A stretch of 64,000 nt of DNA from Phycisphaerales bacterium (GTDB lineage: Bacteria > Planctomycetota > Phycisphaerae > Phycisphaerales > UBA5793), in NCBI GenBank assembly GCA_043101845.1, contig JBICHN010000011.1:913678-977677 (forward strand), read 5' to 3'. A program made the position numbers and the translations under genes. Below the pieces are notes generated by a model, which had not been told where the DNA came from, did no database searches, and saw only the letters and a list, made by a program, of their open reading frames with translations. Numbering within the stretch: the first letter of the stretch is position 1; every line of letters begins with the position of its first letter. Shown here one piece after another: positions 3,185 through 6,100 of the stretch.

Positions 3185-6100
3185 AAGTTGCGCGATTTGG
3201 CGGTGAGTTCGATCATCTCCTCATCGAGGTCTTCGATCCGATTCGCCATGATGTGGACGACCTGGCCCTGTCGCTCCACTTTCCCGTGTACGAGCAGAAT
3301 CGTTCCATGCCGAGCGGATCTGCGGTAGCGCTCGAAGATGTTCGGGCGGATGATGAGGTTGGCGATTCCGGTCTCGTCTTCGAGCGTCATGAAGACGATT
3401 CCCGACGCGGTTCCCGGCCGTTGGCGGACGAGGGTGACCCCGGCGACGGTGATCCATTTTCCGTGCGGCCAGCGCTCCTCGTCGCGCAACTCCTCCGCCC
3501 GGGTGGCGCATCGCTCGTCGAGTGAATCACGCAGAAACGACATGGGGTGTGCTTTGAGTGACAACCCGAGATGGCCGTAGTCCTGGGTCACCTGACGCAC
3601 CGGGGAAACGGCCGGGAGTGATACGGCGAGTTCTTCGACTTCTTCGGATGATTGAGGTTCGTCTTCCGCATTGACGGACGAATCGAAGATCGGAAGCGCT
3701 TCGTCGCGCAGTCGGCGAATCTCCCACAACGCCCGCTGCCGGTCGAGCCCCATGGAGCCGAACGCGTCCGCCTGAGCGAGTCGACGCAGTGTGGCGACGG
3801 AGACCCCGCTCGCGCGATGGAGCGCACCAATCGTGGAGAAGGGTCCGCTCCGGTCCACGGTTTGTTCGATGGATCGTCCGTCCTCTTCGCGCAGTCCTTT
3901 GACGAGGCGCAGGCCGAGCCGGATCGCGTGTGAGTGTTCGGCGGGCGCATGACGCGCAAACGGACGCGCAGGCTGAACCGTCGCATCGAGTTCGGAATCG
4001 CGAGTTTCGAGTCGGCAGTCCCATCCGCTGTGATTGACATCAACCGGTCGAGCCTCGACGCCGTGCTCGATCGCATCGCGCACGATCTGGGCCGGCGCGT
4101 AGAACCCCATAGGCTGACTGTTGATGAGCGCTGCGGCGAAGGCGGCGGGATGATGACGCTTCAGCCAGGCGGACACATAGACGAGCAAAGCGAAACTCGC
4201 CGCGTGCGATTCGGGGAATCCATACTCGCTGAATCCCTTGATCTGCTCGAAGCAGCCTTCCGCGAATTCGCGCGGATAGCCCCGCTCGAGCATGCCGGCG
4301 ATGAGTTTCTCGCCGAACCGCGCGATGAGATTCCCTTTGCGTTTCCACGCGGCCATGGCGCGGCGGAGTTGATCGGCTTCACCCGCGGTGAAACCCGCCG
4401 CGACGATGGCGAGCGACATCGCCTGCTCCTGAAAGAGCGGCACGCCGAGCGTCTTCCCGAGCACGCGCTTCACTTCGTCATTGGGATAGTGGATCGGCTC
4501 CTCGCCGTTCCGCCGACGGAGGTACGGGTGCACCATGTTGCCCTGAATCGGACCGGGACGAACGATGGCGACCTCGATGACGAGATCGTAATAGCACCGC
4601 GGCCGCAGGCGCGGCAACATCGACATCTGCGCCCGCGACTCGATCTGAAACACCCCGACCGTATCGGCGTCGCAGATCATGTCGTACACCAGTGGATCTT
4701 CGGGAGGGATGGAGTGGAGTTGAAGGGAAGAAAGGCACGGAGGCACGGAGGCACGAAGGCACGAAGAAGAAAAGAAACGATCGTTCTTTATGGAATCGAT
4801 TGCGATTCGAGACTTCGGATGAGACCTTGAAGGATTCGATCGACTTCTTCGATTCGTTCGGTGGGATATTGATCGAGCGGAATGTATTTCAGCATCGTCG
4901 CGAGTTCGAGTTGCGTCATCAGTTCCGCCAGGGATCCTCTCGCGATGCGAAGATGTTTGATGTAGTCCCGGAGACTCTGCCTGGCATATCCCTCCGCGAT
5001 ATTCGACGGAATAGAGATCGCGGCCCGCCTCATTTGGCTGATCAGTCCGTAGCGCTCGGCATCGGGCAGGACCGACGAAATCTCGTATACGGTCTGAACC
5101 ATCCCCATGGCTTTCTGCCACGCGATGAGGTCTCGAAAAGTCCGAATGGTGTTCATTGCAGTCGCTTCCTTCCCTTCGTGCCTTCGTGCCTTCGTGCCTT
5201 TGTGCCTGTTCTTGTTCAACCAGCCGAAACCCCTTACTGATCACCGTGAGCATTCCGAGTCCGAGGACATCGACCTTCATCATGCCCATCGCGTCGATGT
5301 CGTCTTTGTCCCATTCGATGACAGTTCGATCGGGCATCGCAGCGTTTTCGATGGGCACGAGATCACAGAGCGGGCCTTCGGTGATGACGAATCCTCCGAC
5401 ATGCTGGGAGAGGTGACGCGGAAAGCCGAGGAGCTCCGACGCAAGCGTGAGCGTTCGTCGAATCGTGGCGTCGTCCGGATTGAGACCCATCTCCCGCAGG
5501 CGGTCTTCGCGCACGACGCCCTTGTCCCACCAGTCGATGTTCTTCGCCAGGCGATCGACCGCATCGAGGGAAAGTCCCATGGCCTTGCCGACATCGCGCA
5601 CCGCGCTTCGGCCGCGATAGGTGATCACTTCCGCCGTCAACGCCGCTCGCTCGCGACCGTACTTCTGGTAGATGTACTGAATGACTTCTTCCCGGCGTTC
5701 ATGCTCGAAGTCGATATCAATGTCCGGCGGCTCATCGCGCTCCTTGCTCACGAAACGCTCGAAGAGCACATCGATGCGATCGGGATCGACCGCGGTCACG
5801 CCGAGGCAGTAACAGACCGCGGAGTTCGCCGCGGCGCCGCGCCCCTGGCACAGGATGTCCCGAGAGCGCGCATACACCACGAGGTCATGCACGGTGAGGA
5901 AATACGGCGCGTAGTTCAATTCATCAATGAGTTCGAGTTCGTGCCGCAATTGACGCATGACCCGTTCCGGAGCGCCGTCCGGATACCGCTCCGCAGCGCC
6001 CTGCCAGGTCAGGGTCGTGAGATGCTCGATCGGTGAAAGACCGGACGGACACACTTCCGACGGATACTGGTACTTGAGTTCGTCGAGGCTGAACGCGGCG

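Follow-up and report, generated by a model that had tools for sequence, protein, structure and literature searches.

Inverted octamer arrays around a PF05635 gene inside dnaE2 of a Phycisphaerales bacterium: arms of a gene-in-hairpin cassette with predicted read-through and a possible RNA-level role

Intervening sequences (IVSs) of 23S rRNA that bear an open reading frame (ORF), including those of Leptospira, were reportedly described by Ralph and McClelland in 1993. The IVS in helix 45 of the Coxiella burnetii 23S rRNA measures 428 nt and holds an ORF of the Pfam family PF05635 within a 28-bp terminal stem; tandem GACAGAT heptamers, whose copy number differs between strains, precede its ATG, and RNase III cuts it in vitro (Warrier et al. 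2016, PMC4990558). Protein genes carry smaller in-frame inserts, the Rickettsia palindromic elements (RPEs) and similar small palindromic repeats (PMC2229807, PMC10969869), and the Correia repeat enclosed elements (CREEs) of Neisseria form a co-transcribed hairpin that binds RNase III, can be cut and alters host expression (PMC2649163). Dispersed 7-nt repeats of the type GGGNATC have been described in Xanthomonas and Nostoc (Rehm et al. 2015, PMC4692102), beside the short tandemly repeated repetitive (STRR) sequences of cyanobacteria. Here we analysed a 64,000-nt stretch of the genome of a Phycisphaerales bacterium (contig JBICHN010000011.1, positions 913,678 to 977,677; hereafter the window), in which two inverted arrays of the octamer AGGCACGR enclose a PF05635 gene, hereafter the IVP gene, the whole lying inside dnaE2, a gene for an error-prone DNA polymerase III alpha subunit. 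All the marks of an IVS-type cassette were found at this locus: a PF05635 gene in the loop, a long closing stem, and arms of 7–8-nt repeats next to the Shine-Dalgarno (SD) stretch and ATG.

Our preferred reading, to which we assign a probability of roughly 0.55, is that a heritable PF05635 gene-in-hairpin cassette has the arrays as its arms, that ribosomes read through this cassette in dnaE2, and that the arms have a role as an RNA helix.

Paired arrays enclosing a gene inside dnaE2

Both arrays are read on the minus strand and give, in the sense of the mRNA, AGGCACAA AGGCACGA AGGCACGA AGGCACGA AG for the 5' arm (5174–5207) and CTTCGTGCCT TCGTGCCT CCGTGCCT CCGTGCCT for the 3' arm (4733–4766). 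The fourfold AGGCACGR and its reverse-complement array, noticed in an earlier reading of the window (the original prediction), were recovered by Tandem Repeats Finder as period-8 arrays at 4732–4766 (4.4 copies, 92% matches) and 5173–5207 (4.4 copies, 96% matches), and by an inverted-repeat search that joined 4733–4766 and 5174–5207 into a 34-nt inverted repeat with 91% complementarity and 407 nt spacing. The arms mismatch at three positions, all A-C in the mRNA sense. The 24-mer (AGGCACGR)3, with up to 2 mismatches allowed, had five matches in the window, all inside the two arrays, and none in 100 dinucleotide shuffles of the window. When 4715–5225 of the minus strand was folded as RNA, the check that the original prediction had proposed, a closing helix of about 60 bp was obtained, extending beyond the arrays via AAGAA/UUCUU and GGUUGAA/UUCAACU, with a minimum free energy (MFE) of −200.7 kcal/mol against −160.6 ± 6.7 for shuffles (z = −6.0); the arm-arm duplex reached −116 against −68 ± 6 kcal/mol. 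These results confirmed that the paired arrays close the passenger gene into a stem, and reproduced the predicted helix of about 32–34 bp with its three A-C mismatches and its AAGAA/UUCUU extension. The peptides expected from the repeats in the host frame were likewise both found in the 1280-aa host ORF: AQRHEGTKARRE in the 5' arm, which reads (A)QRHEGTKARRE, and CLRASVPPCL in the 3' arm. An independent reassembly of the source run, a sponge metagenome, spanned the cassette at a depth of 93.3, compared with 93.1 in the flanks; one contig ended within the first array.

The host is a dnaE2-type DNA polymerase III alpha gene (3178–7020, minus strand; ORF list, Pfam and alignment to Taq), whose product counts 1280 aa including the insert. 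The product carries the Pfam domains PHP, DNA_pol3_alpha (aa 332–587), finger (aa 766–913), HHH_6 and OB, and the catalytic motifs PDIDIDF and EWDKDD are legible in its translation. Alignment to Taq Pol III alpha located about 160 additional residues where Taq shows about 5, in a length-variable DnaE2 loop at the palm/finger boundary. By comparison with relatives in which the site is empty, the insert proper covers roughly 4727–5207 (minus strand; about 480 nt, or about 160 host codons), while the whole cassette with its extended closing helix, as placed by the RNA fold and the same relatives, covers 4715–5225. It has the orientation of its host; the dnaE2 frame is free of stops across it, and the IVP frame is offset by +2.

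The IVP gene (4788–5156, minus strand; ATG 5156–5154, TAA 4790–4788) encodes a 122-aa four-helix-bundle protein, matched by the Pfam profile 23S_rRNA_IVP (PF05635) with E = 4.8e-34 and 117 bits against a cut-off of 33.8; its match to the bAvd profile (E = 8e-7) lies below the cut-off of that profile. The SD-like purine-rich stretch GGGAAGGAAG (5165–5174, minus strand) ends 8 nt before the ATG and is base-paired within the extended stem in the MFE fold, and an SD-like purine run followed by ATG was seen in 13 of 13 nested loci inspected. Identities at the three codon positions of IVP across nested copies (0.67/0.74/0.42) indicate that this gene, in its overlapping frame, is under purifying selection. 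A 182-aa ORF on the plus strand over the cassette (4692–5240, ORF list) was rejected as a gene and is read as an artefact: it runs in the direct antisense register of the IVP codons, and is open because IVP avoids the codons TTA, CTA and TCA.

Two known classes of insert were considered and rejected for this locus. An intein is not present, as a Pfam scan of the 1280-aa product returned Pol III alpha domains only and no Hint domain. Nor is the insert a 23S rRNA IVS in the strict sense, its host being dnaE2 rather than helix 9, 25 or 45 of 23S rRNA; the genome's complete 23S copy (contig C5) has 2836 nt against a 2925-position model, and is therefore without an IVS.

A cassette family and its turnover in dnaE2

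The IVP protein served as query against 301 genomes of the order, from which we took the best 30 loci; to these we added a wider sample of 80 named IVP loci from many phyla. By its named relatives the organism belongs to the Phycisphaerae, in the phylum Planctomycetota. Complementary arrays of short tandem repeats flanked the IVP gene in all 30 loci of the order, and most of 103 more widely sampled IVP genes also sit between inverted 7- or 8-nt tandem arrays. The units vary by locus (AGGCACGR, AGAGACGR, AGCGACGR, AGGGACGA, AGTGACAC, AAGTTCCG, GGCATCGA, AAGCGAAG and others). Across 106 loci, the duplex formed by a locus's own arms averaged −78 kcal/mol, compared with −53 kcal/mol for cross-locus pairs, and the own pair beat all 25 cross pairs in 51 of the 106 (about 4 expected by chance). 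Where strong arrays were present on both sides (n = 38), the period was 8 in 23 loci and 7 in 15, and the units were complementary in 32. Comparison of these loci thus indicates that arm complementarity is kept while the unit sequence changes from cassette to cassette, and the layout of a stem with an ORF in its loop, proposed originally for one locus, proved to be the rule for the IVP gene family. Arm copy number varies between loci, with a length near 4 units (3–5 in most of 46 arm estimates from 23 nested loci). Unit type is clustered on the IVP tree: it changes 8 times, compared with 15.7 times on average after shuffling, and none of 200 shuffles was as low; all four supported sister pairs examined on that tree have a common unit type. 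We regard it as very probable that the arms belong to a heritable IVP cassette. Free cassettes recur at operon junctions, read from their flanks as accB|accC (5 loci) and groES|groEL (3 loci).

Some dnaE2 cassettes, among the loci L073, L074, L086 and L082, have multiplied arms or extra gene-less hairpins just before or after the IVP gene; L073 has three stacked arrays per side in a 795-nt insert, and the host frame is open in all four.

At one common dnaE2 loop, a cassette was found at 23 loci from 22 distinct genomes (two loci, L048 and L078, are identical); 12 of the nested genomes come from five families of the order, and 10 are named metagenome-assembled genomes (MAGs) labelled Phycisphaerales, Tepidisphaerales, Planctomycetales or just Planctomycetota. 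The host frame contains no stop in the IVP region of any of these 23 loci, nor of the 4 cassettes nested in other genes, whereas the corresponding frame of 83 free IVP genes has 4.55 stops on average and is stop-free in only five, at least three of which look nested too. Synonymous shuffling of the window's IVP gene left the host frame open in 1.4% of trials (P = 0.014). Where strong arrays are present, the arms show a stop triplet in one frame or another in 2 of the 17 nested loci but in 18 of the 23 free ones (Fisher p = 7e-5); in one locus (L065) the unit GAGACTGA contains TGA, and the sole unit that would place it in frame reads TTA instead. An ORF that spans IVP is co-oriented with it in 25 of 25 such loci. 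The other in-frame hosts are an amidohydrolase (L060) and an Eco57I/MmeI-type methylase (L131), both by Pfam, together with two methylase-like genes judged from their translations only (L102 and L139). Several further in-frame repeat arrays, such as TDNRKLTTDN and GLGSGVSGL, were seen in L102 and L131.

A host frame free of stops, together with arms purged of them, argues that ribosomes read straight through the insert, so that DnaE2 would be made with about 160 extra codons that comprise both arms and the overlapping gene. We consider it very probable that the arms are translated in dnaE2. Such read-through makes an obligatory excision of the insert by RNase III unlikely.

The dnaE2 site is also found empty, filled otherwise or filled without a gene. 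Among the first 40 relatives, about 20 genomes had the dnaE2 flanks, and the insert was present only in the genome of the window (G000) and in G016; empty alleles have 15–27 nt at the site, compared with 486 nt in G000. In G028, the identical site holds an in-frame 120-nt hairpin without a gene (L035, G028:C51, 1372–1493), with arms GGGATTTG/CAAATCCC and a 39-nt loop. Alleles with and without the insert are intermingled on the DnaE2 tree, which requires at least 3–4 changes. Two congeners, G016 and G140, have at the same site arms AGGCACGG/CCGTGCCT and AGAGACGG/CCGTCTCT, respectively, all units differing on both sides, and their third-position identity (L048 vs L049) is 0.64 in the flanks but 0.44 in IVP, the level of random pairs. 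The IVP gene of G000 is sister to that of a free cassette in G036 (support 99/88), and a dnaE2-nested IVP (L045) is sister to the one in the amidohydrolase (L060; support 95/90). Strict vertical co-descent of IVP and dnaE2 was rejected, as the two are only moderately correlated (Mantel r = 0.40, 15 of 5000 permutations) and the trees show swaps. From these alleles the cassette can be described as a unit that is gained, replaced and lost at the dnaE2 site; it shows no sign of recent movement, since even the nearest distinct IVP pairs diverge by about 27% in protein. The idea that the arrays act as recombination signals gained ground to the extent that they are part of a moving or recombining unit: one cassette type replaces another at the site, and arm types track the IVP tree.

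Another loop of DnaE2, following 'DCTLEE', is occupied in a Phycisphaerales MAG by a complete IVP cassette with an AGGCACGR arm (L080, 1500–1937) and in G016 by a solo in-frame AGGCACGR array (L049, about 2640–2700), which suggests that solo arrays can be cassette relics. Alleles of different families are intermixed on the DnaE2 tree, for instance an f1 allele that is sister to an f3 allele (99/99), and the imuA-imuB-dnaE2 region appears to move between lineages.

G000 contains 28 AGGCACGR arrays and 3 IVP genes, and the arrays were therefore rejected as genome-wide IVP markers; they are paired only in the dnaE2 cassette and in one gene-less hairpin, and the arms of the three IVP copies are unrelated to one another. 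About 26 intergenic AGGCACGR arrays lie outside the window (C2:906-947 kb, C7:82-168 kb and C11:196-313 kb), usually stacked head-to-tail with AGAGACGG and GATTTGAG/GATCTGAG octamer arrays, and a gene-less composite hairpin at C7:108577-109165 has nested AGGCACGG and AGAGACGG arms. In G000, octamer arrays are directly followed at seven places (C2:917354, 925384, 936677, 940454 and 946506; C4:64249; C5:33152) by a conserved repeat, roughly 200 nt long, that starts with GAGCCGGGGCGTGCCGCCCCGTTTGACGCGCGATCAACGAGACGCGTTC; Rfam scans of three of these seven loci (C2:940454, C2:946506 and C4:64249) and of solo-array loci returned no match. The two other IVP paralogues of G000 are located at C11:96246-96572 and C11:361756-362022; one immediately follows a tRNA gene and is preceded by a hairpin of the GAGAGTCGA type, and the other has GATTTGAG/GAGATTGG-type arms, of which the 3' arm apparently lies inside the end of the ORF.

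What the arms may do

We tentatively put the chance that the RNA helix functions in expression or processing a little below even. Such an RNA-level role is supported by the presence in the genome of the rnc gene for RNase III, by the cleavage of a homologous stem by that enzyme, and by the position of the SD-like stretch within the stem. In transcripts free of ribosomes, the arms would pair into a double-stranded RNA helix of 34–60 bp in which the IVP ribosome-binding site is buried; by analogy with the rRNA IVSs, this helix would be a substrate of the genome's RNase III. Translation of IVP might then depend on opening of the helix by the ribosomes that translate dnaE2, and cleavage would be partial, lowering dnaE2 mRNA rather than excising the insert.

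Several points weigh against this proposal. A nested cassette with mismatched arms (L046, AGGCACGA vs AGAGACGA) and three loci with extra stacked arms (L073, L086 and L074) indicate that a perfect single stem is not strictly needed. An excess of G·U over A·C among stem mismatches, the signature expected of selection on the sense RNA, was sought and not found (84 G·U vs 104 A·C on the sense strand, p = 0.17; at the dnaE2 locus itself, 3 A·C and no G·U), and such strand-symmetric complementarity is what a DNA-level process would leave. Cleavage would furthermore produce a stop-less 5' half of the dnaE2 mRNA, in conflict with the selection for read-through, which is why we picture it as partial only. 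In a search of sequencing runs, the window was matched by its source DNA run only. Two runs labelled as RNA had matches to 6% of the G016 locus and gave four short contigs, outside the cassette or at its edge, in which no ends or joints were seen. Finally, about 24 of the 28 AGGCACGR arrays in G000 are solo and intergenic; these are both unpaired and unlinked to IVP, an outcome that the original prediction had counted against itself.

The strongest alternative, possible but unlikely as the primary explanation, places the arms at the DNA level, as terminal inverted repeats or hairpin handles for insertion, replacement and loss of the cassette; templated (quasipalindrome or strand-switch) repair and array slippage would keep them complementary, and the RNA stem would be a by-product. 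The symmetric mismatch spectrum fits this explanation, as do the concerted change of whole arrays on both sides between congeners, the cassette swap seen in the third-position identities, the interleaved filled and empty alleles, the two IVP sister pairs that join different locations, and the gene-less hairpins and solo arrays held by dnaE2 sites. It is, however, weakened by a cassette that encodes no transposase, recombinase or nuclease, by array boundaries (known only to a few nt) at which reading disclosed no direct repeat of 5 nt or more, by the lack of near-identical copies at different places, and by the strict co-orientation with hosts, which points to a requirement at the level of the transcript. 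A functional RNA helix and DNA-level handles are not mutually exclusive: in our preferred reading, with the arms as an RNA helix, turnover at the site would still be a DNA-level process for which the arms are a likely handle.

Considerably less probable is that the arrays are cognate sites, on RNA or DNA, for an IVP homopentamer that would recognise the roughly 4–5 octamers of each arm, each IVP lineage having its own unit. The dependence of unit type on the IVP tree and the arm length near 4 units would agree with this. The accessory protein Avd of diversity-generating retroelements binds nucleic acid together with the reverse transcriptase, and IVP is linked to this homologue through its bAvd Pfam match. 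Relatives with solved structures are homopentamers of four-helix bundles; for Xcc0516, the pentamer is cited in PMC4990558. Co-inheritance, however, suffices to explain the association of unit and IVP, solo arrays of these units abound in a genome with only three IVP genes, and variation among the units is largely confined to 2 of 8 positions, compared with differences of about 40% between IVP proteins.

A slippage switch, in which gain or loss of a unit would shift the dnaE2 frame and turn the mutagenic polymerase on or off in a phase-variable manner, is very improbable, even though an 8-nt unit, not a multiple of three, lies inside the coding sequence, copy number differs between loci, and the heptamers of the Coxiella IVS vary between strains (PMC4990558). 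All 23 nested loci are in frame, and no length variant was seen in the source run, although rare variants are masked in contigs. Slippage is much rarer in four copies of an 8-mer than in classical contingency tracts. Frame tuning through the 8-nt period, as originally proposed, was not supported, because a change in unit number that is not divisible by three would break dnaE2, and the nested arrays are constrained and purged of stop triplets.

Translational bypass, or RNA excision with rejoining, in which the stem would unite the two halves of the dnaE2 message and the insert be skipped, can be dismissed almost entirely in spite of the juxtaposed host flanks, the formal analogy to T4 gene 60 and its mention in the original prediction, because selection for a stop-free frame (about 160–260 inserted codons in every nested locus, arms included, against 5 of 83 free genes) would be pointless if the insert were skipped, the insert has about 480 nt compared with 50 nt in gene 60, and the Pfam scan detected no intein or Hint domain.

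Meaning and comparison with known systems

We found no literature description of the PF05635 gene-in-hairpin layout outside rRNA. The dnaE2 cassette is a version of this design, in print only from 23S rRNA, that resides in a coding sequence, with stop-purged arms and, as far as the frames tell, read-through. For 35 years IVS elements have stood as a curiosity of rRNA genes without explanation, and the same design is now seen inside a protein-coding gene, at a dnaE2 loop where it is conserved in five families of a single order as well as in MAGs that bear the label Tepidisphaerales. The locus offers a natural case of long dual coding arising from insertion; covariation of the units between arms and with the protein provides a comparative handle on arm function, and mobility can be tested on a set of alleles at one site, some filled or empty, others gene-less or swapped. 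For annotation, the peptides (RHEGTEAR)n and (PCLRASVP)n, where they occur in predicted proteins, are to be read as translated repeat arms rather than domains, and solo octamer arrays within genes can be cassette relics.

More speculatively, and with small likelihood in our estimate, PF05635 genes with inverted 7/8-nt arms could make up a distinct class of selfish cassettes that live on host transcripts, including the interiors of coding sequences. If so, the class would colonise rRNA helices, operon junctions and, by means of a stop-free second frame and stop-free arms, coding sequences; the host enzyme would work with a junk loop of about 160 aa, the shared mRNA would also yield the passenger from a different frame, and lineage-specific recognition of the units by IVP would cause cassettes to be replaced where a site, for instance the dnaE2 loop, is already occupied.

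Compared with known systems, the cassette resembles inteins and T4 gene 60 in interrupting a polymerase gene in frame while a working enzyme would still be made, but it has no Hint or splicing motifs, and its open host frame argues against skipping. The approximately 24 solo AGGCACGR arrays, with those of AGAGACGG and GATTTGAG, are like the dispersed heptamers (about 4 units, mostly transcribed, between co-directional genes). The arms of the cassette differ from these: GGGNATC arrays are described as solo and read as G-quadruplexes, whereas AGGCACGR has no G-tracts. With CREEs the cassette shares inverted-repeat boundaries and co-transcription with host genes; unlike it, CREEs lack an ORF, have a unique conserved terminal inverted repeat sequence with TA duplication, and are intergenic.

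On the evidence of its frame, the cassette has the features of an in-frame palindromic insert of the RPE kind, lying in a coding sequence and presumably translated with its host, so that it would likewise be a selfish palindrome that the host protein tolerates in the form of an additional loop. RPEs, however, measure about 100–150 bp and have neither a gene nor tandem octamers, whereas the dnaE2 insert nests a full gene in a second frame. It was therefore rejected as an RPE in the strict sense (non-coding, 100–150 bp, multicopy and conserved), as it carries a conserved gene and the genome has only three IVP copies.

The closest resemblance is to the 23S IVS, and the analogy with rRNA IVSs drawn in the original prediction was borne out by the Coxiella element (28-bp stem, tandem heptamers, RNase III cleavage; PMC4990558). 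Both have a PF05635 gene in the loop and encode no mobility enzyme; both have a long terminal stem (28 bp in Coxiella, 34–60 bp in dnaE2), short tandem repeats next to the SD/ATG (GACAGAT heptamers and AGGCACGR octamers, respectively) and a similar size (428 and about 480 nt). Cutting by RNase III, established in vitro for the IVS, is only presumed for the dnaE2 cassette, where it is unlikely to be obligatory. The ORF, which is decaying in Coxiella, is here under purifying selection, and the host, unlike that of the IVS, is a protein-coding gene in which the insert is in frame, translatable and bounded by stop-purged arms.

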